From: a virus
Taxonomy: Duplodnaviria > Heunggongvirae > Uroviricota > Caudoviricetes
Length of the DNA stretch: 13,959 bases
Strand: one strand, 5' to 3'
IMG/VR virus record: IMGVR_UViG_2740892233_000006
The notes beneath the pieces were generated by a model. It ran no database searches and was not told the origin of the DNA. It worked only from the letters and a program-made list of their open reading frames with translations. Each line of letters opens with the position of its first letter. Within the stretch, counting starts at the first letter, position 1. The position numbers and the translations under genes are program-made. This document shows, piece by piece, positions 1 through 13,092 of this stretch.

Positions 1-407
1 CGTAGCTGATCACATGCGCCTTTGATATCGCCCTGGTTTATTTTGCGAAGAAGCGTCGATGTTCTGAAATTGCCAGCACCCACGTTGTAAACGAATGAGT
101 AAAGAGCGCCGCGCGTTGTTTCCGGTATATCGACTTCGATGTACGGGTTAATTTGTCTGGCGACAGTGGCAAGGTCTTTATTCAAGAGTGCTTTGCATTC
201 TGCTTTGGTATACGTTTTACCGAGCATGATGTCTTTTCCTGTATGCCCGTGACATACAGTCCATACACCAACAATATCTTTGTATGGTATGTAGCTGACA
301 CCTTCCAGACCATCGTTACCACTTGGGCCAGTGATTAACACTGATGCTATAGCAATTGCTCCGCCACCAATAGCAGCAGCAACGGCTTTTCGTAATGATG
401 GAGGCAT
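1..407 (-). CDS. rrrD: SAR endolysin (phage 21 R / RrrD-like lysozyme), C-terminal part lost at window start
   Basis: Minus-strand reading from ATG at 407-405 gives [23 protein letters not shown]..., a signal-anchor-release N-terminus as in phage 21 R. The ATG overlaps the holin stop (TAATG). ORF runs off the window edge. Confidence 0.8.
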
Positions 408-622
408 TATTCACCTCTCGCAGCCTTGCGCTTATCTTCTTTAATCTTGAAATAAAGGTTTGTCAGGTACGTCAGCAGGCCAAATACCAGGCTACCCAGC
501 ACACCTATTGCTGCCCACTGTGAGGGCGTGACTTTATCGAGCAGCTGTAAAAACCAGTAACCGGCACTACCTGCTGAGGTGCCATAGGCGACACCCGTTG
601 TTAACTTATCCATGGATTTCAT
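407..622 (-). CDS. essD: class II pinholin (S21 / EssD-like) with dual-start motif
   Basis: ORF track 407..667; likely real start is the internal MKSMDK (Met-Lys-Ser-Met dual start) preceded by GAGGTG SD, giving 71 aa: [31 protein letters not shown]...[13 protein letters not shown] with two hydrophobic segments. Confidence 0.85.
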
Positions 623-749
623 AACCCCACCTCGCAGACAAAGCGGGTGTAAATTGAGGGAATACAACGTATCGCAAAAAAGCAGAAACGTAACAGACTC
701 GGAGTCAGTGAATAACTCAGGTATTGGGTTATCAGCTAATATCGAGACT

Positions 750-783
750 CAAAAAATGGAAAAACCCGCTCGACGGCGGGTTT
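750..783 (-). terminator. rho-independent terminator just upstream of the lysis cassette (candidate tR')
   Basis: Minus strand reads CCCGC-cgtcga-GCGGG stem-loop followed by TTTTTCCATTTTTT. Confidence 0.6.
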
Positions 784-1210
784 AAGCTGTGTGACGAAGT
801 AACCACTCTTAACAGCATAACCAATTTTTTACGTACGTAAACCACTAAATGATATTTGCGAGAATGCTACCGAGTATTGAAAACACCACTACAAATACAT
901 AAACAAATCTCAACAAATAACCAACAAATAATTTCCAGCGTTATTTTTAGCCGATTTAAATTGAACCTTCAAATTATAGGGCACTTATAAATAACAGCCA
1001 TTAATATAAATTGGCTAATAGATTTATTTTTATTCAGCCAAGAGCCATGAATAGGATTCGATAGAAAAAGTTCAGATAAAAATAGAGATCTACTTCACAA
1101 ATCAAATGAGAAACCAAAACTTACATCTTGAAATAATCACATTGATTAGATGAATATTTATCGCGCAGTGACATCATTTTTTAATAATAGTTCAAAAAAA
1201 AGGGCTCACG

Positions 1211-2293
1211 ATGAAAAAATTAACAGTGGCAATTTCTGCTGTAGCTGCATCAGTACTGATGGCGATGTCTGCTCAGGCAGCTGAAATTTATAATAAAGAC
1301 AGTAACAAGCTGGATCTGTACGGGAAAGTTAATGCTAAGCACTACTTCTCCTCTAATGATGCAGATGATGGTGATACTACTTATGCCCGTCTTGGCTTCA
1401 AAGGTGAAACCCAAATCAACGATCAACTGACTGGTTTCGGTCAGTGGGAATATGAATTCAAAGGCAACCGCGCTGAATCTCAAGGTTCCTCCAAAGATAA
1501 AACCCGTCTTGCCTTCGCTGGCCTGAAATTCGGTGACTACGGCTCCATCGATTATGGCCGTAACTACGGTGTAGCATACGATATTGGTGCATGGACCGAC
1601 GTTCTGCCAGAATTCGGTGGCGATACCTGGACCCAAACAGATGTATTCATGACTGGTCGCACCACAGGTGTTGCAACTTATCGTAACAATGACTTCTTTG
1701 GTCTGGTTGATGGTCTGAACTTTGCTGCTCAGTATCAGGGTAAAAATGACCGTACTGACGTAACTCAAGCTAATGGTGATGGTTTCGGTTTCTCCACTAC
1801 TTATGAGTATGAAGGTTTCGGCGTAGGTGCAACCTATGCTAAATCTGATCGCACTAATAATCAGGTTATCTACGGTAACAACAGCCTGAATGCATCTGGT
1901 CAAAATGCTGAAGTATGGGCAGCTGGTCTGAAATATGATGCGAACAACATCTATCTGGCTACTACCTATTCTGAAACCCAAAACATGACTGTTTTTGGTA
2001 AAAACCATATTGCCAACAAAGCACAAAACTTCGAAGTAGTTGCACAATATCAGTTCGACTTCGGTCTGCGTCCGTCCGTTGCTTATCTGCAATCTAAAGG
2101 GAAAGACTTGGGTGCTTGGGGTGATCAGGACCTGGTTGAATATATTGATGTAGGTGCAACCTATTACTTCAACAAAAATATGTCCACTTTTGTTGACTAC
2201 AAAATCAACCTGATTGATAAGAGCGATTTCACGAAAGCATCTGGCGTTGCTACCGATGATATCGTTGCTGTAGGTATGGTTTACCAGTTCTAA
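1211..2293 (+). CDS. nmpC: outer-membrane general porin, prophage-encoded (NmpC/Lc type, OmpC/OmpF/PhoE family)
   Basis: 360 aa; signal peptide [23 protein letters not shown] then [16 protein letters not shown]...; C-terminus ...VGMVYQF. Lies between Q and holin on the opposite strand. Confidence 0.9.
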
Positions 2294-2317
2294 TTTGATT
2301 ACTAAAACATATGTTGT

Positions 2318-2363
2318 GGGAGGCTTTGCCTCCCCAACATATAAGTGGCTCCCTCAAGCCACT
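2318..2363 (+). terminator. stem-loops downstream of nmpC (candidate nmpC terminator; no canonical U-tract)
   Basis: GGGAGGC-ttt-GCCTCCC (2318-2334) and AAGTGGCT-ccctca-AGCCACTT (2342-2363), starting about 25 nt after the nmpC stop. Confidence 0.35.
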
Positions 2364-2481
2364 TCCTTTAGAAGCACAACCTTGCTTCTAACTATATAAA
2401 CCTTCTGTTATATATTACCCTTTATTTTTGGGGGCGTTTCAACGCCCCATTCTTAATAATTTTTAGTAAACAATTGGCATA

Positions 2482-2865
2482 TTAATTAGAGTTATTAACA
2501 ACGATATCCATCTCTAACCGGATATCTAATGCCATTAACATCCCTTCAATTATGCCCTCAGCCTTCTGTAACCTTTTCCCGATATAACCATCAGAGCAGC
2601 AATGCTTACCTGCCAGTGACATGAATGTCATACCGACTACATAATAATCTACTAATAAATCGTGCAAATCGCTGTTGTTCTTTTTCAGACGGGCCATGCA
2701 CCCGCAAATGATCATCGCGTCATCGTCACAACATTGCGGGCGAGATTTTACTTTTGAAGTAATTAATCCCTTAAAACCGGCGGCAATGGACGACCAGGTC
2801 ACATCTTCATGATTATTAGCCGCCCACGCTCCCCAACGCTCAAGAACCATCTGAATATCACGCAT
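2482..2865 (-). CDS. quuD: late-gene antiterminator Q (phage 82 / QuuD type)
   Basis: ORF track 2482..2880 (TTG start); better start is ATG at 2865 ([24 protein letters not shown]...) with GGAG SD 8 nt upstream; 127 aa, Cys-rich, matches remembered QuuD. Confidence 0.85.
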
Positions 2866-2950
2866 CAACTTACTCCACAAAAATCAGACCAGAACGCCAA
2901 TTACAAGCAAAAATCAACGAAACAGTATTAGTTGATTGTTATCTCTGACT

Positions 2951-3073
2951 TCATACTCCTGCTCCTGTCAGGGTTTTGGCGTAATTCTTCAGTATTCGGT
3001 AATCGGTCAAAACAGAACCGGGGAAACGATATAAGCGCAGACGCCCCCAGCGGTGGCGAAGACGTTCTGCCAT
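2951..3073 (-). CDS. ylcG: small protein, YlcG-like (40 aa)
   Basis: Manual translation between rusA stop and Q start: MAERLRHRWGRLRLYRFPGSVLTDYRILKNYAKTLTGAGV*. Same position as ylcG in DLP12. Confidence 0.4.
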   Translation of the reverse strand: MAERLRHRWGRLRLYRFPGSVLTDYRILKNYAKTLTGAGV

Positions 3074-3087
3074 ATAAAACTCAAACA

Positions 3088-3450
3088 TCATTCATTCCCC
3101 ATTTCGGTGATGGTCAGTTCCAGCCTCCCACCTTTGGTAACAGGCATCTTCACAACGCGGTAATCAACGACCTGAGCATCATCCAGCCAGAAACCTGCTT
3201 TAGTGAGTGCGTCAAAAGCGGCTTTTTGCAGATTATCCAGGTCACGGCGACGGCGATCCGGCATGTGGCACTCAATGCGGATTTTCACAGGCATAGCCAA
3301 GCCGATATCCAGCATTGCGTTTTTAATGATTCGGGCGACGTTATCGCGGTATGCCTGCCCCTCTGCGCTGACGTGCGTGCGCCCGCGATTATGGCGGTAA
3401 TAGCGATTATTGCTCGGAGGCCAGGGTAATGTGATGCTGTAGGTATTCAC
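3088..3450 (-). CDS. rusA: RusA Holliday junction resolvase
   Basis: [38 protein letters not shown]...[11 protein letters not shown]; likely GTG start at 3450 overlapping the ybcO stop (GTGA); 120 aa. Confidence 0.85.
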
Positions 3451-3737
3451 GCCTTGATTACCCCCTCTTTCAGCCAGATAACCTGCGTTCTCGCCATACC
3501 TTCCAGCGCGCATTCTTTTGCGTACTCAGCATCGACAAAATGCGTGCGGCGGTCGATTTCGTCGTGACAGGCAGAACAGGCAATGGTGGCAATAAGGTCT
3601 GGCGGTTTAATACCGGTGCCACACAGTCCAGCCAGCCGGATATGTGCCAGTACAGACGTTTCAGGGTTGCCATTGCATACGCCAGGGATTCTTACCTGGC
3701 ATTCGCGACCACGCGCTGCTTTTCTCAAATCAGCCAT
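3447..3737 (-). CDS. ybcO: YbcO-like protein (DUF1364, putative nuclease)
   Basis: ORF track 3447..3776; start at internal [37 protein letters not shown]... (96 aa), Cys-rich; overlaps the ninE end. Confidence 0.8.
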
Positions 3738-3900
3738 GATTCCTCCTTGCTGCCAGTCGCAACCATTTTTTATCAACCAGGCTGGCGGTATATCCGAGCA
3801 GTGTTGGTATTTCGGATGGTTTTAGCTCAGGCTTACGCTTACGACGATTTGGTACTCTGTAGATGTGTCCGTTCATGACACGAATAAGCGGTGTAGCCAT
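3730..3900 (-). CDS. ninE: NinE-like protein (56 aa)
   Basis: Manual translation: [59 protein letters not shown] overlaps the ybcN stop (TAATG); stop overlaps the ybcO start. Confidence 0.7.
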   Translation of the reverse strand: MATPLIRVMNGHIYRVPNRRKRKPELKPSEIPTLLGYTASLVDKKWLRLAARRNHG

Positions 3901-4355
3901 TACGCCTCCTGCTTGTCGCGCAGCAGCTGGAACTCGCAGCTCTGCGGAATAGTCAGGTGGCAGCCAATATTCATCGCCCAGGCTTCAACCTTACACAGGA
4001 AGACATACATCTCTCCGGTATCAAGATCGGAGGTATGGCGTAACGACTGGATAGTAGTGATTTCGCCGGTTACGACATCAACCAGGTCCTTGGTTTCATA
4101 ACCGAGGTATGTGTGTTTGAGAGCATCTTTTACCCATGCTGCGGTAGCGAACGATTTCCCCCTGCGGATAAGGTATTCACTGATTTCGCTGTACCACATG
4201 TGGCTAAGTGCATTCTGGGAAAGACTGCGTCTCTCGCGCCACGGTTTAAGCACCATGCGAAAGCACTTGCCGTCTTCCAAATAAGGCTGGAGCTGCTGAC
4301 CGATAGCGGTGAAGTTACCGCGATGCAGTTTGATGCCGTCTTGTGGGAGGTTCAC
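3900..4355 (-). CDS. ybcN: YbcN-like protein (DLP12 ybcN homolog; reported DNA base-flipping protein)
   Basis: 151 aa [55 protein letters not shown]...; GTG start preceded by GGAGGTGA SD. Confidence 0.8.
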
Positions 4356-4391
4356 GCTTCACCTCCGCAGAGGTCAAACGCTGGATAAAGA

Positions 4392-4484
4392 AAATCGCAG
4401 GTGCATTTCTGCATCTGTGACGGGAGAAGATAGTTTAGATTGTATGTGCGCATAAACGTCCCCGTTTAGCGCAGAAGTCACCGG
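4392..4484. repeat. 93-bp direct repeat, copy A (about 95% identical to 6713-6805)
   Basis: aaaatcgcaggtgcatttctgcatctgtgacgggagaagatagtttagattgtatgtgcgcataaacgtccccgtttagcgcagaagtcaccg; contains palindromic hairpin GCGCataAACG-tcccc-GTTTaGCGC. Confidence 0.75.
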
Positions 4485-4505
4485 AGGAGTTCAAACTCCG
4501 GTGAC
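4479..4505 (-). other. perfect 9-bp stem-loop downstream of the cargo cassette (TCACCGGAG-N9-CTCCGGTGA); no U-tract
   Basis: Inverted repeat read directly; lies between the 133-aa gene stop and repeat copy A. Confidence 0.35.
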
Positions 4506-4576
4506 TTAATTATGACAAGTTGATTATTGAAAATCAAAAGTCATTTAAACAATAATGATACCCAGCAAGAGATTTC

Positions 4577-4978
4577 TTATTTTAACTCATAGATCAGACA
4601 GTCAACGATTTCTAAACCATTTACCATAGAATTAGAAACGCGAACTTTACCATCGTTGACTCTAGCAAATCCTTTTAACATTTTATAAACAAAAGCTGAA
4701 TCCCCCTTAGCCTCAATTGCTTCTAATGGTATCGGCTTATACTTTTTTGATATGCTATTTCTATTTATCTCACTGATTTTTCTATATATTTCTGCCGGCC
4801 CACGTTCTGAGAAGTCACTGATAACTAAAATATATCTCCAAGATAGATCTGGGTAATAAAACCACATTGCAGCATCAATAGTTAAATTCTGTAACTTGAG
4901 TTTTTTTAACAAAAATTGACCTGAGAATTCCATATCTTTTGTCAACTCTCTGCCGATTACCAGTGTGCTTTTACCCAT
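4577..4978 (-). CDS. hypothetical 133-aa protein, partner gene overlapping the HEPN-like gene end
   Basis: ATG at 4978 preceded by GGAG SD (7-nt spacing); overlaps upstream gene by 22 nt; AT-rich codon usage unlike flanking phage genes; no family recognised. Confidence 0.55.
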   Translation of the reverse strand: MGKSTLVIGRELTKDMEFSGQFLLKKLKLQNLTIDAAMWFYYPDLSWRYILVISDFSERGPAEIYRKISEINRNSISKKYKPIPLEAIEAKGDSAFVYKMLKGFARVNDGKVRVSNSMVNGLEIVDCLIYELK

Positions 4979-5373
4979 TTCAAAACTCCAGAATTTTGGT
5001 CACCTACAGCATCAAACAATTGTTCGGCCATAGCTTTACTTATGTTATTGTCGTATCTAAATTGCTCGCTCCAGTCTTTAACGACCGACCAGTTAATCTC
5101 CAACGAAACATCATTTTTTGCGTCAGCAATCAAAATTTGATGTAAGTTGGCAATTTTGAGAAGTTGCGACAAATCATGAGTATATGAATCATTTACGACT
5201 TTTTTGTTTGGAAACTCATGTTGTAAAAATGACTTGGCAATACAGGCCTTCAATGCACATTCAACTGCATACCCACAAAGATAATATGCACCATGAAAAA
5301 AGCCATGATCAAGCAAGCATTTGGCCTCATTAAGCCTAGTGTCAGATAATGCTTCAAGGTCGTTTTTATTCAT
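4957..5373 (-). CDS. HEPN-like domain protein (138 aa), candidate toxin/abortive-infection effector
   Basis: LLDHGFFHGAYYLCGYAVECALKACIAKS ... SYTHDLSQLL ... EQFRYDNNISKAMAEQLF matches the remembered HEPN (PF05168-type) pattern (helical A-x-E-x-ALKA, H-x-L-x-x-L, RY); TATAAT-like hexamers upstream on minus strand. Confidence 0.5.
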   Translation of the reverse strand: MNKNDLEALSDTRLNEAKCLLDHGFFHGAYYLCGYAVECALKACIAKSFLQHEFPNKKVVNDSYTHDLSQLLKIANLHQILIADAKNDVSLEINWSVVKDWSEQFRYDNNISKAMAEQLFDAVGDQNSGVLKWVKAHW

Positions 5374-5672
5374 ACAATTATAACTTGAATTATCCTAATT
5401 TTTATGATTATACCCTTATCAGGTATGATGTAGGAACTGAAAACAATATTGGATATCATTTTCGGTATTTCTCTGCAAATTCCAGCCCACAGGATCTCGG
5501 TGTACAATCTGTCGCTGATCGCGCAAATTTAGGGTCAATCACTTCATTTTTTGCATCAAACCCTCACTAACATCGAACGATTATAGTACAAGTAGTGTTC
5601 TTGACTTCTCATTAAACCGTCAGCATTCAATTAATTACAAAATACTAGCGGCATTTCTCTCCCGCAACTTTA

Positions 5673-6281
5673 TTACAGCCGTTCAGAACGTAAATGCGTC
5701 AATACTCGACTCCACTTATCATCCTGCCACGGCCGGAATTTTACATGTGCCGTTTCTCTGGCAAGGATTGCCTGTGCCTTATTGAGTATCCGGGGATATT
5801 CTTGTTCGATTGAAGTGAAGCGACCGGCTTCGCGGTGTTCTGCTACCTGAAGAAGCGGAGTGACGTTTTGGCAAGCGGTTAACATTGTGTCACTTGCCCG
5901 CCATAACCAAGCAAGTGTGCAAAGTTCGTTATCAGTGAATTGTTTTGTGATTGGGGATTGTTGAATTTCTCGATCGAGAATATCCAGCACCCAGCGGCGG
6001 AATTCTTTGGCCACAGGAGTGCGGGCGAACATGGCGATCAGATGGGCGCCACGGAGGGAGAAAATGCGAGTCTTCTTACGATAATTTCCTGAGGTCGTTG
6101 ATTCGACGACCTGAGACATTCCGTCAGTAAACTCATCAATATTTTTGTTGTAGATGTCGGTTACTGCTTTGGTGCTGGCATATTTTAATGCTGCCGCCAA
6201 TTCTTTGCTGGTAAACCAGATCTGGTTGTTGTGATTTATAGGAGTGAATTTTACATCGCGGAATGCGAGCTGAGTGACCAT
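5673..6281 (-). CDS. phage antirepressor-like protein (Bro-N / KilA-N / AntA-type N-terminal domain, unknown C-terminal domain)
   Basis: ORF track 5673..6518; domain-like sequence starts at internal Met: MVTQLAFRDVKFTPINHNNQIWFTSKELAAALKY...TRIFSLRGAHLIAMFARTPVAKEFRRWVLDIL. Start is uncertain (no good SD); a terminator at 6443-6466 argues against the 6518 start. Confidence 0.55.
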   Translation of the reverse strand: MVTQLAFRDVKFTPINHNNQIWFTSKELAAALKYASTKAVTDIYNKNIDEFTDGMSQVVESTTSGNYRKKTRIFSLRGAHLIAMFARTPVAKEFRRWVLDILDREIQQSPITKQFTDNELCTLAWLWRASDTMLTACQNVTPLLQVAEHREAGRFTSIEQEYPRILNKAQAILARETAHVKFRPWQDDKWSRVLTHLRSERL

Positions 6282-6442
6282 AGCGATAATCTCGTTTTGA
6301 ATTTGAGCTATCACCACCGACGACGCCAATCGACTGGTGGTGGACTGTGCAAGGTTGGCGTAACCGGTCAAAACGAAATCCGGCGCTTCCGAAGAAGCCC
6401 TCACACAGCCCACCATAATTTTTGTGTAGACGTGCACTGCGC

Positions 6443-6466
6443 ATAAAAAAACCGCGAACGCGGTTA
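6443..6466 (-). terminator. rho-independent terminator in the nin-type region (tR2-like position)
   Basis: Minus strand: AACCGCG-ttc-GCGGTT followed by TTTTTTTAT. Confidence 0.6.
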
Positions 6467-6712
6467 TGCGTCGTTTTGATGTCCGGGACGCCAATCCCGT
6501 GTGCCGATTTTGCGGCAACGCACAGAATATAGCGCCGGATAAATAATGTCGTCAACCCTTGCATATGGGGGGCGCGATGATCACTACTACCACCATAATC
6601 GCTCCAACTGTTGCAACTACTTTAGGCTAAGACATCACGATTTCCATATCACCTTTAGCCGCCAGACAAACAGAGACTCCCTGTTCTTGGCTGCCAAAAA
6701 CACCGAATGCAA

Positions 6713-6805
6713 AAAATCGCAGGTGTATTTCTGCATCTGTGGAGGGAGAAGAGAGTTTGGATTGTATGTGCGCATAAACGTCCCCGTTTAGCGCAGAAGT
6801 CACCG
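6713..6805. repeat. 93-bp direct repeat, copy B (partner of 4392-4484)
   Basis: aaaatcgcaggtgtatttctgcatctgtggagggagaagagagtttggattgtatgtgcgcataaacgtccccgtttagcgcagaagtcaccg; 5 mismatches to copy A. Confidence 0.75.
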
Positions 6806-7033
6806 TAGTTGTTCATATTCTGATGACATGATAATTTCCTATTGAATAGAAAAAATTAACACGACTCATTCTTATGACTGGAAAAAGCAATCATGCTAAT
6901 AATCATTGTTGTTCCAGTTCCAAATGCAGCGAAATAATCACCAATATTTTTTCTACCGGTTTCGACTTTGATGCTATATTCTGCTAACACCTAACTAACA
7001 CTACGTTTCACACAGCAATTACATGGAAATAAC

Positions 7034-7381
7034 ATGACTATCAAAGCGACTGACATAGAGATTCTTCATCGTTATGCTGAAGGGGTAATGGAACGTTCTA
7101 ACCATCATGCAAAAAATGTTGGTGCAGCCGCTCTTACATTGCTAGGAGGTGTTATCTGGAAAGCCCTGCCCGGATCAATCGAGATAAGAACGTATAACGG
7201 AAGTCTTGCAAATATGGTGTGGTGGCAAAGCGAAAGAACATTAAAAAATTATGCAATCTCATACAACCATAATTCATGTGAAATTGAAATGAGAGATGAA
7301 TCAGTCAAAGGTGCTGTATTATTTAGCATTTCCAACGAAACCACTCCAGAAAAAATATTATCACAGCTTTCTGAGCTTTAA
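7034..7381 (+). CDS. hypothetical 115-aa protein, reverse-oriented orphan (moron) gene at the ren position
   Basis: MTIKATDIEILHRYAEGVMERSNHHAKNVGAAALTLLGG...; purine-rich RBS; AT-rich; opposite strand to the flanking early genes; stem-loop directly downstream. Confidence 0.55.
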   Translation: MTIKATDIEILHRYAEGVMERSNHHAKNVGAAALTLLGGVIWKALPGSIEIRTYNGSLANMVWWQSERTLKNYAISYNHNSCEIEMRDESVKGAVLFSISNETTPEKILSQLSEL

Positions 7382-7386
7382 TTAAA

Positions 7387-7404
7387 GGCGGTGCTAACAC
7401 CGCC
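7387..7404 (+). terminator. stem-loop after the 115-aa gene (GGCGGTG-ctaa-CACCGCC), weak or bidirectional terminator
   Basis: Perfect 7-bp GC-rich stem 6 nt after the stop codon; A/T-rich flanks but no clean U-tract. Confidence 0.35.
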
Positions 7405-7556
7405 CATACCATTACTCCACATCTTACGCAACTTGATAATTATGCTCTATTAAATACCCACAATATTTCATCAATGCATGGGTCAGCTACAAAATGTTTA
7501 CCGTGGTAATTCCTGTTTTCGCAACATCTCAAAAGAACAATAAACACTGTATTTCT

Positions 7557-7589
7557 TCAAGTAACGAAGAATCTTTCTTTGCCCGTCAT
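7557..7589 (-). pseudogene. ren: ren 5' remnant (MTGKERFFVT*)
   Basis: ATG overlaps the P stop codon (GTATGA) as ren does in lambda; first residues MTGKE match remembered lambda Ren, then stop after 10 codons. Confidence 0.4.
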
Positions 7590-8431
7590 ACACTTGCTCC
7601 TTTCAGCCCAAACTTAGCTTTGATTTCTGCGATCTTCGCCAGAGCCTGTGCACGATTTAGAGGTCTACCGCCCATAACAGGAAGTTGTTTTACTGGTTCA
7701 GGTATCGTCTCACCACGGTTAATTCGCGCTGTCATACAGGTCAGTTCATCGGCAGCCTTGCGCCGTAATTCCGCGTCAGTCAGCGCATTGGCCCGCATGT
7801 TCTGGTACAGGTTGGTAACCAACCAGTAATGCGCGTTCGATTTCCACGGATAAGACTCTGCATCCGGATACAGGCCACGCTTCCGGCAATACTCGTAAAC
7901 CATATCAACCAGCTCGCTGACGTTTGGCAGCCCGGCGTTAACGGATGCTTCTTCCCGGCACCATGCAACAAACTGCCCGGGTGATGGCAGAAATGGTCTA
8001 TTCTGCCGACGGGCAACACGCATTCCGGCGCTCACCTGTTCCATCGTGGTGATCCCGTTTTCCCGGAAAGCCAGAACCCACTGGCGGCGGATTTCGTTCA
8101 GTTCGTTCTGGTCACGATTAGCCAGGCTCGCCGGGAAAGTTGCCAGTAACTGGCTGAATACACCGTTGATTATCTGCGCTACCTGCTGTACCTGCGGCTT
8201 TTCGTCGTACTGTTCCGGCATGTTGTTGGCGATCCGACGCATCTGCTCACNNNNNNNNNNGTTAGCCAGGCTCGCCGGGAAAGTTGCCAGTAACTGGCTG
8301 AACACACCGTTGATGATCTGCGCTACCTGCTGTACCTGAGGCTTTTCGTCGTACTGTTCCGGCATGTTGTTGGCGATCCGACGCATCTGCTCACGGTCAA
8401 AGTTAACCATCTGTGCGGCGATGTTTTTCAT
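7586..8431 (-). CDS. P: replication protein P (lambda P-like helicase loader); reading frame contains scaffold gap 8251-8260 with duplicated flank
   Basis: MKNIAAQMVNFDREQMRRIANNMPEQYDEKPQVQQ... ...KIAEIKAKFGLKGASV; the 281-aa ORF is inflated by an artefactual repeat of EQMRRIANN...ASLAN around the N run. Confidence 0.85.
   Translation of the reverse strand: MKNIAAQMVNFDREQMRRIANNMPEQYDEKPQVQQVAQIINGVFSQLLATFPASLANXXXXEQMRRIANNMPEQYDEKPQVQQVAQIINGVFSQLLATFPASLANRDQNELNEIRRQWVLAFRENGITTMEQVSAGMRVARRQNRPFLPSPGQFVAWCREEASVNAGLPNVSELVDMVYEYCRKRGLYPDAESYPWKSNAHYWLVTNLYQNMRANALTDAELRRKAADELTCMTARINRGETIPEPVKQLPVMGGRPLNRAQALAKIAEIKAKFGLKGASV
8251..8260. other. 10-nt N run (scaffold gap) with about 130 bp near-identical duplicated flanks
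   Basis: Sequence before the gap (gattagccaggctcgcc...atctgctcac) recurs after it with 3 mismatches. Confidence 0.95.
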
Positions 8432-9503
8432 AGATCCACCCCGTAAATCCAGTCTGTGTTTGTCAGGTCGAGTTTTGGTTTGCTGGCTGTCACGGCTGCC
8501 TGTTGCTTGTTACGGTTGATTTCGAGCTGGGTCCACTTGTCGCGGAGTTTGGCCGGACTNNNNNNNNNNAATCCACCCCGTAAATCCAGTCAGTGTTTGT
8601 CAGGTCGAGTTTTGGTTTGCTGGCTGTCACGCCTGCCTGTTGCTTGTTACGGTTGATTTCGAGCTGGGTCCACTTGTCGCGGAGTTTGGCCGGACTCAGC
8701 ACGTTACCGGACCAGAAGTTGTCCTGGCAGGCCCAGCGGAAAAGCACACACATATCGCGGTGGTTACGTCCGTCACGTTCACGCATCAGGCGGATATCGT
8801 TAGCCCACCCTGCAAAATTCGGTTTTCTGGCTGATGGTGCGATGGTCTTCACCATGTCAAACATCCACTCTGCGGCGGTCAGGTCTTCTGCTGTTCCCCA
8901 CTTGCTGCCGCTCTGAATTGCAGCATCCGGTTTAACCACAGAAAGATCGTTTTCTGGCTGGTCAGAGGATTCGCCAGAATTCTCGGACGAATAATCTTTT
9001 CTTTTTTCTTTTGTAATAGTGTCTTTTGTGTCCCCCTGTTTTGAGGGATAGCAATCCCCTAATTTGAGGGATGTTTTATCCCTCGTTTTAGGGGATTTTC
9101 CCTCGTTTTGAGGGATGTCCCTCATTTTAGGGGAACCTCCCTCGTTTTGAGGGATGCACCATTCTGAGATGTTTTTATTTGGTCCAAACATGCCGCCTTG
9201 CTGCTTGATAATATTCATTCTGACGAGTTCTAACTTGGCTTCATTGCACCGTTTGACAGGTAACTTTGTAATCTCGCTAAGTTGAGAATCGGTGATTCTG
9301 TCCATTGGTTTATTCCACCCATAGGTTTTACGCAGAATGGCAAGCAGCACTTTAAACTGTCGCTTGGTCAGATCTGCGCCTGAATAGGCCTCAAGCAGCA
9401 TATTTGATAGTCTGGCGTAACCATCATCGAGATCTGCCACATTACGCTCCTGTTCGGCAAAGTTACCTCTGCCGAAGTTGAGTATTTTTGCTGTATTTGT
9501 CAT
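8428..9503 (-). CDS. O: replication initiator O, lambda type (contains ori iterons; frame interrupted by scaffold gap 8560-8569)
   Basis: MTNTAKILNFGRGNFAEQERNVADLDDGYARLSNMLLEAYSGADLTKRQFKVLLAILRKTYGWNKPMDR...; GGAG SD; the C-terminus ...TDWIYGVDL with stop overlapping the P ATG lies in the segment below the gap. Confidence 0.8.
8560..8569. other. 10-nt N run (scaffold gap) with about 125 bp near-identical duplicated flanks
   Basis: O C-terminal coding sequence appears on both sides of the gap with 2 mismatches. Confidence 0.95.
9031..9156. repeat. lambda-type replication origin iterons, six copies inside the O gene
   Basis: Six TCCCTC-N5/6-GAGGGA-type palindromic units at about 20-bp spacing, followed by an AT-rich stretch. 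Confidence 0.8.
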
Positions 9504-9535
9504 AATGACTCCTGTGGATTGATCCAGTAATTCCC

Positions 9536-9677
9536 TCAGAATTGCATATCAATTTGCTTAGAGTCCCCGGCGGCCACCGGGGATTTTTTCTTTGTGATTT
9601 CATCAAGCGCATACTTAAAAGCCCTGCTAATCGGACTGATGTCTGATGCCATTCCGAAAGCACACAAGACCGAAGCA
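9536..9677 (-). CDS. cII-like gene, 3' fragment only (5' end lost in scaffold gap)
   Basis: Frame ending at stop 9536-9538 encodes ...ISRAFKYALDEITKKKSPVAAGDSKQIDMQF*, resembling the remembered lambda CII C-terminus (...ILTNKKRPAATERSEQIQMEF); directly upstream of O. Confidence 0.45.
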
Positions 9678-9687
9678 ATAAATCTCC
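9678..9687. other. 10-nt N run (scaffold gap) joining an O 3' end to a cII-like 3' fragment
   Basis: Flanks are not duplicates here: one side is O C-terminal coding sequence, the other a cII-like gene end. Confidence 0.95.
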
Positions 9688-10571
9688 NNNNNNNNNNCGA
9701 CTGTCACGCCAGCCTGTTGCTTGTTCCGGTTGATTTCGAGCTGGGTCCACTTGTCGCGGAGTTTGGCCGGACTCAGCACGTTACCGGACCAGAAGTTGTC
9801 CTGGCAGGCCCAGCGGAACAGTACACACATGTCGCGGTGGTTACGTCCATCACGTTCACGCATCAGACGGATATCGTTAGCCCACCCTGCAAAATTCGGT
9901 TTTCTGGCTGATGGCGCGATGGTCTTCACCATGTCAAACATCCACTCTGCGGCGGTCAGGTCTTCTGCTGTCCCCCACTTGCTGCCGCTCTGAATCGCAG
10001 CATCCGCTTTCACCACAGGAAGGTCGTTTTCTGGCAGGTCAGAGGATTCGCCAGAATTCTCGGACGAATAAGGTTTTATATTGTCTTTTGTTAGTTTGTC
10101 TTTTGTGTTTACCTGATTCGGGTAAGTGCCTTTACCTGATTTGGGTAAACTTTTCTTACCTGATTCAGGTAAATTTACCTCTTTCAGGTAAACTTTATTT
10201 TTCTTACCTGATTCGGGTAATGTTGACCATTCACTGACCACATTATTAATGCCGATATTCCGCCCGCTCTGAATAAAAATCCCACGCTTTACCAGAACAC
10301 TTTTTGCAGCAGAACACTTGTGCGGCAATATCCCGGTCAACTCGGAAAGTTGCTCGTTGCTCACCCAGTCCAGTTTTTTATTAAAGCCATATGTTTTGCG
10401 CATGACAGCCAGGAAGACCAGAAGCTGGTGCTGTGTTAATCCGGCCAGCATTACAGCTTCCAGCAACTCATTTGCAATGCGCGTATAACCATCATCGAGA
10501 TCTGCCACGCGCGGCTCCTTTTGTGCCGCATCCGGCACTGGAAAATTGAATATCTCAGCAGTGTTTGCCAT
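9688..10571 (-). CDS. replication initiator O, second type (different N-terminal iteron-binding domain; 3' end lost in gap)
   Basis: Start MANTAEIFNFPVPDAAQKEPRVADLDDGYTRIANELLEAV... with GGAGG SD (ORF track start 10661 is too long); C-terminal domain identical in sequence to the lambda-type O. Confidence 0.75.
10108..10222. repeat. second replication origin iteron set, five copies of TTACCTGATTCGGGTAA-like palindromes inside the second O gene
   Basis: Five units (TTACC-N7-GGTAA) at 23-29 bp spacing, read directly. Confidence 0.75.
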
Positions 10572-11497: not shown

Positions 11498-11601
11498 AAC
11501 AACCTCCGTGGTTAATTTGAATCAAGATTAAAACTATGGTTGTTTTTAGTCAACAACCATTTTCGTTTGATGGAATAAAACCTTGGTTGTACATTTGGAC
11601 T
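11498..11601. promoter_or_regulatory. OR-type operator region with divergent pR (minus) and pRM (plus) candidates
   Basis: Perfect palindrome TGGTTGTT-N7-AACAACCA (11537-11559) overlapping a minus-strand TTGACT -35; related half-sites at 11498-11515 and 11584-11600; plus-strand TTGATG-N17-TACATT ends about 6 nt before the cI ATG. Confidence 0.6.
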
Positions 11602-12291
11602 ATGAAAACAACACTCTCAGAAAGACTTAAAGAAGCCAGATTAGCGCGAGGCCTTACACAAAAGGCGCTTGGGGATTTGGTCGGGGTTAGCCAGGCTGCT
11701 ATTCAGAAAATCGAAACAGGGAAAGCTAATCAAACAACTAAAATCGTGGAGATCGCGAACGCTTTGGGTGTGCGCGCAGAATGGTTATCTTCTGGCGTTG
11801 GAAATATGTCAGACAGTACAGTGCAACCAATACAATCAACTGTCAGCCATTCCAAATACTTCAAGATTGACGTTCTTGATATAGAAGTCAGTGCTGGGCC
11901 GGGAGTCATCAACCGTGAGTTTGTAGAAGTTCTACGCTCGGTTGAGTACTCGTTTGACGATGCTCGTCACATGTTCGATGGTAGGAAGGCAGAAAATATC
12001 CGCATCATTAACGTGCGTGGTGACAGCATGTCAGGAACGATCGAACCAGGTGATCTGCTGTTCGTTGATATCACGGTTAAATCTTTCGACGGTGATGGTA
12101 TCTATGCATTTCTGTACGACGACACCGCCCATGTAAAGCGCCTGCAAATGATGAAGGATAAACTGCTGGTTATCTCTGATAACAAGAGCTACTCACCGTG
12201 GGACCCTATCGAGAAAGACGAGATGAACCGGGTATTCATATTCGGTAAGGTTATTGGGAGCATGCCGCAGACGTACAGAAAACACGGATAA
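11602..12291 (+). CDS. cI: CI-type prophage repressor (N-terminal HTH, C-terminal LexA/S24-like autopeptidase domain)
   Basis: Start at MKTTLSERLKEARLARGLTQKALGDLVGVSQAAIQKIETG...; C-terminal domain has GDSM (Ser) and HVKRL (Lys) dyad context; ORF track start 11536 would run through the operators. Confidence 0.85.
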   Translation: MKTTLSERLKEARLARGLTQKALGDLVGVSQAAIQKIETGKANQTTKIVEIANALGVRAEWLSSGVGNMSDSTVQPIQSTVSHSKYFKIDVLDIEVSAGPGVINREFVEVLRSVEYSFDDARHMFDGRKAENIRIINVRGDSMSGTIEPGDLLFVDITVKSFDGDGIYAFLYDDTAHVKRLQMMKDKLLVISDNKSYSPWDPIEKDEMNRVFIFGKVIGSMPQTYRKHG

Positions 12292-12372: not shown

Positions 12373-12636
12373 ATGAGTAATAAAACACTTGTTAAAAAAT
12401 CAAATAACTGTGTCGATGCATACGCCGACGCGTTTGGCTACTCTTCGTTTGGTGACGGCTCTCAGCGCCTAGGTTCAATTTCTTTTTTTCATAATGTAAC
12501 TGAATGGCCTGTTGATGAAAGTGACGATGTTGAGAACATAAAGTACAACATTGCAACCATTAGAATGCCCGAAGAATTGATGCTTAAATTGGCTGACTTC
12601 ATTCGCGACCAGCATGACAAAGCTAAAACAAACTAA
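12373..12636 (+). CDS. hypothetical 87-aa acidic protein, first gene downstream of cI (rexA position)
   Basis: MSNKTLVKKSNNCVDAYADAFGYSSFGDGSQRLGSISFFHNVTEWPVDESDDVEN...; AT-rich; same strand as cI. Confidence 0.55.
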   Translation: MSNKTLVKKSNNCVDAYADAFGYSSFGDGSQRLGSISFFHNVTEWPVDESDDVENIKYNIATIRMPEELMLKLADFIRDQHDKAKTN

Positions 12637-12648
12637 TCGTAATTAATT

Positions 12649-13092
12649 ATGAAACACGATTATTACGAAGCTCCAAACCTAAATGATAAAATTGCAAAGG
12701 CGGCAGAATCATTTTGTTTGCACTCCAGTGCGTCTTCCCAGCTAGCAGGTATATCTGGAAAAAGATGGGACATGCTACAATCAAGTGGTAGCAGTGGGTC
12801 TGGGAGTGATAACATGCCTGAAAAAGTTGCAAAACTGGAGTCCGATGTTGCTCATATCAAACGAGACGTTGATGAACTTAAAACAGACGTTAAAGCTATC
12901 GACAAAAATATGATAACTATTCTTGCACGTCTGGACTCTATAAAAGAATCCTTAACAAACAAGCCATCAAGTGATGCTGTCGATAGAAAGATTTCAGACG
13001 CAAAGCTTGCGGTATTGCTTGGTGTTCCAGCAATCATCGCTGCAGGAACAGGACTTTATAAGCTATCAATGTACTTTTTCTTTAGTGCTTAA
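12649..13092 (+). CDS. hypothetical membrane-anchored coiled-coil protein (147 aa; alternative start at 12811 gives 93 aa)
   Basis: Ser/Gly linker SSGSSGSGSDN, heptad-like EKVAKLESDVAHIKRDVDELKTDVKAIDKNMITILARLDSIKESL, C-terminal hydrophobic helix AVLLGVPAIIAAGTGLYKL. ATG 12 nt after the preceding stop; GGGAG SD before the internal MPEKV start. Confidence 0.55.
   Translation: MKHDYYEAPNLNDKIAKAAESFCLHSSASSQLAGISGKRWDMLQSSGSSGSGSDNMPEKVAKLESDVAHIKRDVDELKTDVKAIDKNMITILARLDSIKESLTNKPSSDAVDRKISDAKLAVLLGVPAIIAAGTGLYKLSMYFFFSA

Follow-up and report, generated by a model that had tools for sequence, protein, structure and literature searches.

A Vch_cass14-family cargo gene in place of ren in a lambda-like Escherichia coli prophage

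We analyzed a 13,959-nt stretch of DNA, hereafter the window, from the virus record IMGVR_UViG_2740892233_000006. The prophage in the window is of the DLP12/lambda-like type from enterohaemorrhagic-type E. coli, and the operon that is called rightward in lambda lies on the minus strand. A cI-like repressor gene (11536-12291, plus strand) is followed in order by a cro-like gene, ydaT, O, P (from 7586) and the cargo region described here, beyond which lie ant, a HEPN gene pair, ninB/ybcN, ninE, ybcO, rusA, ylcG, quuD and an ompC-type porin gene. Carriers of this prophage include O157, O26 and O103 strains of E. coli.

Positions 1-8250 of the window match the E2865 chromosome at 100% identity. 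Three runs of N follow (8251-8260, 8560-8569 and 9688-9697), and the pieces joined there are only 94-97% identical to the reference prophage. Because the N runs join mismatched pieces, the P and O frames are artificially lengthened and O is seen twice. The segment from 8251 to 9697 looks like a scaffold patchwork of paralogous lambdoid prophages rather than biology, and it leaves the finding at ren untouched.

Two further features of the prophage are recorded here as observations. Two small genes encoding 87 and 147 aa (12373-13092, plus strand) lie 3′ of the cI-like repressor gene on the same strand; they hold the position of lambda rexAB and may be lysogen-expressed cargo. An OmpC/NmpC-type porin gene (1211-2293, plus strand) sits just downstream of the Q antiterminator gene and faces the other way, which is also the placement of the Lc and NmpC porins of PA-2 and DLP12.

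The 3′ part of P occupies 7586-8250 on the minus strand (PF06992 Phage_lambda_P, E = 5e-64; "replication protein P" in RefSeq), and its product ends in GASV before the TGA stop at 7586-7588. Overlapping this stop as ATGA, an ATG at 7589-7587 opens a short frame, MTGKERFFVT, that runs to its own stop at 7557-7559 (whole frame 7557-7589, minus strand). An earlier note on this DNA had described the frame and taken it for a remnant of ren. Everything described is present, and the resemblance is not coincidental: an ungapped alignment to lambda (J02459) gives 97% identity across the final 100 nt of P plus nt 1-14 of ren (ATGACGGGCAAAGA), followed by 19% over the next 100 nt, which is chance level. 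BLAST homology to lambda and to phage 434 stops at window position 7576, so that the ren-homologous part of the frame is 7576-7589 only (ren nt 1-14). Lambda Ren begins MTGKEAIIHY and shares MTGKE with the stump; because lambda identity stops after nt 14, the first five stump codons are real ren and the last five are junction sequence. The locus thus resembles lambda in its ATGA overlap, its first 14 nt and its first five codons, whereas the rest of the 96 codons is gone, homology to full-length 96-aa Ren is absent, and the new gene lies on the other strand and bears no similarity to Ren. The comparison with lambda indicates that ren has truly been replaced, with a genuine 14-nt stump left behind.

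The position at which ren breaks off (nt 14, 7575/7576) is the right border of an AT-rich cargo block. To its left, positions 6698-6861 (minus strand) are a decayed second copy of a "nin-start" element, comprising a palindrome and the first ~26 codons of orf33. Over 6698-6859, this copy is an 81% direct repeat of a 162-nt element at 4376-4537. Alignment with phage 82 (X92588) and PhiR30_1 showed that both copies correspond to the nin-start of phage 82, in which a palindrome (GTCACCGGAG...CTCCGGTGAC), annotated as a possible regulator site, precedes the start of orf33. RefSeq has a partial pseudogene at the decayed copy, where orf33 is truncated. Because 6698-6861 is a nin-start copy and the right break falls at ren nt 14, the cargo is limited to about 6862-7575, with the borders taken from the lambda, BLAST and nin-start alignments. 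The block therefore measures 714 bp, and its GC content is 37% compared to 54% for P. It stands in place of ren from codon 6 to codon 96 and of the stretch from there to the nin-start element. The interval first proposed, 6806-7589, was right in its gene content; 6806 does not hold as a boundary, as the AT-rich block begins near 6862.

The slot between P/ren and nin-start carries other genes in other phages. PhiR30_1 has ren, a reverse-oriented small ORF, an acyltransferase gene and a lipoprotein gene there, and IdasGreatGrand has a string of small ORFs. These slots share the P 3′ end and the nin-start palindrome/orf33 borders with the window but differ in gene content. The direct repeat within the window suggests that the nin-start element may serve as a recombination linker for cargo exchange. 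Of 5426 complete E. coli genomes, 181 carry the intact block in one copy, with 99% identity or more; its flanking sequence is matched by 3592 E. coli genomes, only 181 of which have the cargo block.

The block contains one gene (7034-7381, plus strand), which encodes a cytoplasmic protein of 115 aa and 12.9 kDa, identical to WP_000152742.1. The gene faces against the pR early-right operon, in the orientation opposite to all neighbouring early genes, and has 38.5% GC overall and 30% GC3. The 115-aa AT-rich gene on the opposite strand in the earlier note is thus present as described. The protein has 11 basic and 13 acidic residues and a pI of 6.06. Because its highest 19-residue hydropathy is only 1.4, it has no signal peptide, as the note had also said, or membrane segment.

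We rejected one further ORF in the block. A 44-aa frame on the minus strand (6856-6990) was considered as a divergent partner or small toxin, but it has no family match and no RefSeq annotation, lacks sequence conservation in Citrobacter and overlaps with the putative promoter described below; it is probably not a gene. An Rfam scan of 6400-7700 returned no match within the cargo block.

The cargo gene had been called an orphan without a nameable family, to be checked by profile and structure searches. Those searches found a family. The protein scores 71.7 bits with Pfam PF18315 (VCH_CASS14), for which the cut-off is 26.7 (E = 5.7e-20; positions 2-92 of the 97-position profile), and matches phrog_5959, an unannotated PHROGs family, from end to end. 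Among known structures, residues 3-109 match PDB 3IMO, the "integron cassette protein Vch_cass14" of Vibrio cholerae (phmmer E = 1.3e-17), and a profile built from 99 family sequences matches 3IMO with E = 4.8e-46. PF18315 is matched by all 99 of these aligned homologues. Recent PGAP/RefSeq and UniRef entries name the protein "Vch_cass14 family protein", and many RefSeq records just give "hypothetical protein". The exact protein WP_000152742.1 occurs on at least 1000 contigs. In 1.84 billion representative sequences the family comprises 469 clusters at E ≤ 1e-3, nearly all with a length of ~113 aa. Among 150 representatives, no second recognisable domain was found in the longer proteins except one Clp_N fusion, and these are probably gene-call extensions.

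Other collections gave no match. None of the NCBIfam models matched the 115-aa protein, tblastn against 50,697 deposited phage genomes returned no Vch_cass14 homologue, and Foldseek against the BFVD viral structures returned no fold match at E ≤ 1e-3. A literature search on Vch_cass14, 3IMO, PF18315 and WP_000152742 found nothing beyond the 2013 structure paper (PMC3548836). The family and its structure with a ligand pocket are thus known already; what is new is a prophage-borne member.

Lack of conservation, which the earlier note had named as one thing that would speak against its reading, is not what we observed. The gene is conserved in Citrobacter and Serratia, and comparison of the E. 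coli, Citrobacter and Serratia copies gave dN values of 0.18-0.29, well below dS, as synonymous sites are saturated. Between genera, BLAST aligns the coding sequence only. The substitution pattern argues for a real gene under purifying selection. That the reading frame is spurious or a decaying pseudogene, as might be thought from an AT-rich region and from the many "hypothetical protein" records, is refuted by the 469 homologous clusters, the crystal structure of a homologue, the low dN relative to dS and a confidently predicted structure (pLDDT 97). We regard the reality of the gene and its membership in the Vch_cass14 family as practically certain.

The predicted monomer model of the 115-aa protein is an alpha+beta sandwich built of two layers, with the order b1-a1-a2-b2-b3-b4-b5-b6-a3, and the residue numbering of 3IMO carries over to it directly. 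The 3IMO protein, a sandwich of the same type, is a homodimer joined by its helix faces (Sureshan et al. 2013, PMC3548836). Its pocket is deep, measures about 15 Å in length, is lined by 17 hydrophobic residues and has a gate formed by Tyr14, Arg21 and Asn60; an unmodelled linear aliphatic molecule occupies the pocket and acetate is bound at the gate (PMC3548836). Its authors kept enzyme, sequestering protein and transporter as possible roles (PMC3548836). In the E. coli protein, all 20 of the pocket positions given in that paper, as read from the alignment, are identical or conservatively replaced, and the gate residues are identical. The gate is also conserved across 99 diverse homologues (Y14 in 93%, R21 in 88% with K in another 7%, N60 in 94%). 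Among the other 17 pocket positions in these homologues, 15 are at least 93% hydrophobic and the remaining two, which are small residues, are 80-88% hydrophobic. The most conserved columns of the family are the pocket positions together with His24, His25, Tyr77 and His79. Because the gated pocket is conserved, small-molecule binding is the most likely core activity of the protein, an assignment to which we give slightly better than even odds.

The helix-face hydrophobic residues are conserved in the family alignment, and the 115-aa protein is probably a dimer. Compared to 3IMO, for which a strongly basic beta-sheet surface was described (PMC3548836), the E. coli protein is slightly acidic (pI 6.1) and does not keep the basic sheet face. 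The median pI of the 99 family members is 6.5; because only 28% have a pI above 8, the basic face is a trait of the Vibrio protein and not of the family. Frataxin/YdhG-like and type III secretion chaperone-like sandwiches (2plg, 9t2w, 1s28, 4jmf) also appeared in the structure search, but their identity is 7-13%, their topology differs, and their scores fall far below that of 3IMO, and they provide no basis for functional inference.

Sequence upstream of the gene contains a candidate extended -10 promoter element, TGCTATATT (6972-6980, plus strand; hexamer TATATT at 6975-6980), from which transcription would start near 6987 and produce a 5′ leader of about 47 nt. The upstream regions of the E. 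coli and Citrobacter copies share, without a change, a 10-nt block that includes it, TGCTATATTC (6972-6981), in flanks that BLAST otherwise leaves unaligned. A scan for two-hexamer promoters did not call the candidate -10 at 6972-6980. We infer that the TGCTATATTC block may act as an extended -10 promoter. A weak Shine-Dalgarno-like GGAAA, read from the sequence, lies at 7025-7029, 5-9 nt upstream of the ATG, and the Citrobacter copies have AGGGGA at this position.

Six nt past the stop codon lies a hairpin, GGCGGTG-CTAA-CACCGCC (7387-7404), with a 7-bp G+C-rich stem, a folding energy of -13.2 kcal/mol and a z-score of -4.4 relative to shuffled sequences. On the strand of the gene the hairpin is followed by CATACCATT, without a T tract; a T-rich tail (TTTAATTAAA) is present on the minus strand only. 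Because the T tract is missing on its strand, the hairpin is not a canonical terminator for the cargo gene. Of the stem-loop terminator that the earlier note gave the gene, a stable 3′ hairpin is present, with no U tract on the strand of the gene. The hairpin may end or stabilise the cargo transcript, and its sequence would also allow it to terminate pR transcripts.

The anatomy of the block recalls lambdoid morons. These genes, for example lambda bor and lom and HK97 gp15, are AT-rich single-gene insertions with promoter-like and hairpin elements. The block likewise lies between genes that are adjacent in related phages, deviates from them in base composition, combines one gene with promoter-like and hairpin elements, and is placed for predicted expression from a repressed prophage. 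Unlike bor, lom and gp15, it is located in the early-right region between P and nin, antisense to pR, rather than in the late operon, and its product is cytoplasmic rather than an envelope protein. The moron configuration put forward in the earlier note is borne out in that the insertion is AT-rich, reverse-oriented and single-gene, and we consider it likely that the block is an independent moron-type unit. Compared to the Vch_cass14 gene of 3IMO, which is a promoterless attC cassette, the unit described here is reverse-oriented in a lambdoid prophage and has a putative promoter.

Based on this information, we propose the following explanation. The 714-bp AT-rich block would have recombined in between ren nt 14 and the nin-start element, deleting ren and leaving a mosaic junction in a DLP12/lambda-like prophage. 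It would be a self-contained moron, consisting of the candidate extended -10 promoter, one gene and a 3′ hairpin. Its own promoter may drive the cargo gene while pR is repressed, that is, in the lysogen. The protein would act alone and bind a small amphipathic molecule, which it might sequester, sense or modify. The ligand may combine a carboxylate-like head with an aliphatic tail, like the unmodelled molecule in the 3IMO pocket. We assign a probability of roughly 55% to this explanation up to and including ligand binding. Beyond that point, the unit could be of use to the lysogen, with phage-host conflict as the most plausible arena. A role connected with defence, whichever its sign, such as the lysogen-expressed defence, anti-defence or immunity protein put forward in the earlier note, is suggested by location alone, and we consider it less likely than not.

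The contexts of family members elsewhere, which were gathered by exact-protein look-ups, bear on this explanation and on its rivals. A scan of GTDB genomes with an alignment of close homologues gave no confirmed locus. The gene occurs as a lone reverse-oriented gene in the early regions of at least three temperate-phage lineages. In lambdoid prophages of Citrobacter with a DnaT/IstB-type replication module, it is the sole reverse-oriented gene between the replication genes and rusA/Q. Two metagenomic viral contigs have a 49%-identical copy, again lone and reverse-oriented, between a Dcm methylase gene and Ash/AntA early genes. Outside phages, the Vibrio cholerae gene is a single-gene superintegron cassette, and tyrosine recombinases adjoin the gene in four further elements. 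Comparison of 12 immediate neighbours from independent loci revealed no shared homology except one marginal 35-residue match. The gene thus has no obligate partner.

Among the rivals, a metabolic or housekeeping role survives best. The protein would then be a small enzyme or carrier for a fatty-acid-like compound that hitch-hikes on mobile elements. The aliphatic ligand and acetate in the 3IMO crystal agree with this (PMC3548836), and the conserved His24, His25 and His79, with Tyr and Asn, could form a catalytic site. Many homologues come from soil and water bacteria, and one lies inside a dcw cell-wall gene cluster. However, no metabolic genes are consistently linked to the family, and nearly all contexts examined are mobile elements, edges of integrases or islands of defence/toxin-antitoxin genes. 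We consider this role unlikely.

Close behind it is a stand-alone anti-phage protein of the superinfection-exclusion or abortive-infection kind, expressed in the lysogen, with the pocket as sensor or effector site. Because the cargo gene is reverse-oriented within the early operon, its expression is expected when pR is off. Prophages, integrons and integrase-bearing islands have captured the family repeatedly, the HEPN pair lies 1.7 kb from the cargo gene in the same prophage, and defence genes adjoin homologues in several loci. In one genome the gene comes after an integron-type integrase, with a PDC-S35 TIR gene as the next cassette. Some other loci include a type IIG restriction-modification enzyme together with TacAT, or else RosmerTA alongside DUF499 and HigA. 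A PADLOC match with E < 1e-50 lies within 4 kb in 5 of 13 independent non-prophage loci, a raw count with no background for comparison. The cargo of mobile elements tends to co-localise whatever its kind, and the defence-gene neighbourhood is suggestive only. Against a stand-alone defence role, no known defence model is matched (the 115-aa protein hits no PADLOC-DB v2 family at E ≤ 1), the protein has no recognisable effector domain such as a nuclease, pore-former or NADase, and the neighbourhood counts come without a control. This reading, too, appears rather improbable to us.

A counter-defence protein or modulator would instead be a small "sponge" or regulator that tempers nearby abortive-infection proteins or sequesters a signalling molecule, guarding the prophage or its host against self-activation. 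This idea draws on loci in which the gene lies directly downstream of, and is plausibly co-transcribed with, unrelated single-protein systems. In Serratia marcescens, an AbiU/AIPR gene and a 64%-identical homologue share a strand, with the homologue 35 nt downstream (4218-6348 of locus L009); this arrangement was found in 4/4 S. marcescens loci examined, and AbiU and Vch_cass14 may form a two-gene unit there. In Syntrophobacteraceae, the gene lies 22 nt downstream of PDC-S06 and two genes upstream of an Avs2-like NTPase gene. A small, probably dimeric protein with a conserved pocket would also follow a logic similar to that of known phage sponge proteins. However, a hydrophobic and aliphatic pocket with a carboxylate-type gate sets the protein apart from nucleotide-binding sponges, and the gene has no such partner in E. 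coli, Citrobacter or Vibrio, where it stands by itself, while the neighbours that do occur are non-homologous. We think a modulator role improbable.

A role as an orphan immunity protein or as an antitoxin, directed at an inter-bacterial toxin or at the toxin of a toxin-antitoxin system, fares a little worse. No toxin gene is conserved next to it, conservation is strongest in residues that line an internal pocket and not at the surface, and family sequence conservation is high for an immunity protein.

Least probable among the rivals still standing, and in our view very much so, is a role in cis. Here the hairpin would be a tR2-like terminator of pR transcripts, convergent transcription would damp early-right expression, and the protein would be incidental. 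Lambda has a terminator just after P and ren, and the T-rich tail of the hairpin is solely on the pR-transcript strand. Nevertheless, the coding sequence is the sole part conserved between genera, and selection on the protein is strongly purifying. A hairpin shortly past the stop codon is present in the Citrobacter and Serratia copies as well, but its sequence differs from that of E. coli, as do the flanks.

Returning to the explanation by a moron whose product binds a small molecule, we also considered a broader hypothesis, which we regard as doubtful: that Vch_cass14 proteins are a previously unrecognised single-gene phage-host conflict module, either a defence or a modulator/counter-defence, acting via a conserved pocket for a lipid- or fatty-acid-like ligand. 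If this were true, the module would have been captured repeatedly by integrons, temperate-phage early regions and integrase-borne islands, and here one such module would have replaced ren, which is itself related to exclusion. Overall, the locus combines routine lambdoid mosaicism with a gene from a catalogued family and changes little; its value is as a lead. The structure available for the family is of high resolution, the setting, a lambda-like prophage of E. coli, is genetically tractable, and a function found here could extend to the family and to a recurrent class of integron cassettes.

The neighbouring part of the early region contains further cargo, which we note separately. The nin-start direct repeats bracket 2.3 kb that include ant and the HEPN pair. 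The HEPN-domain gene (4957-5373, minus strand) overlaps a gene for a 133-aa protein (4577-4978, minus strand) by 22 nt, and both have 35% GC. The 133-aa gene has no family match, and for the HEPN protein PADLOC gives a weak match to its candidate PDC-M28A (E = 2e-7); the two genes are a possible defence or toxin-antitoxin module. Just upstream of the Bro-N/P22AR_C anti-repressor gene (5673-6283), positions 6445-6532 (minus strand) match the Hfq-binding sRNA isrK (RF01394; 64 bits, gathering score 50). A c4-a1b1 antisense-target match overlaps it (40.6 bits, below the gathering score of 46.7), and a promoter-like site lies at 6555-6526 (minus strand). Together, isrK, c4 and ant resemble a P1 immI-like or Gifsy IsrK-type RNA-controlled ant unit.
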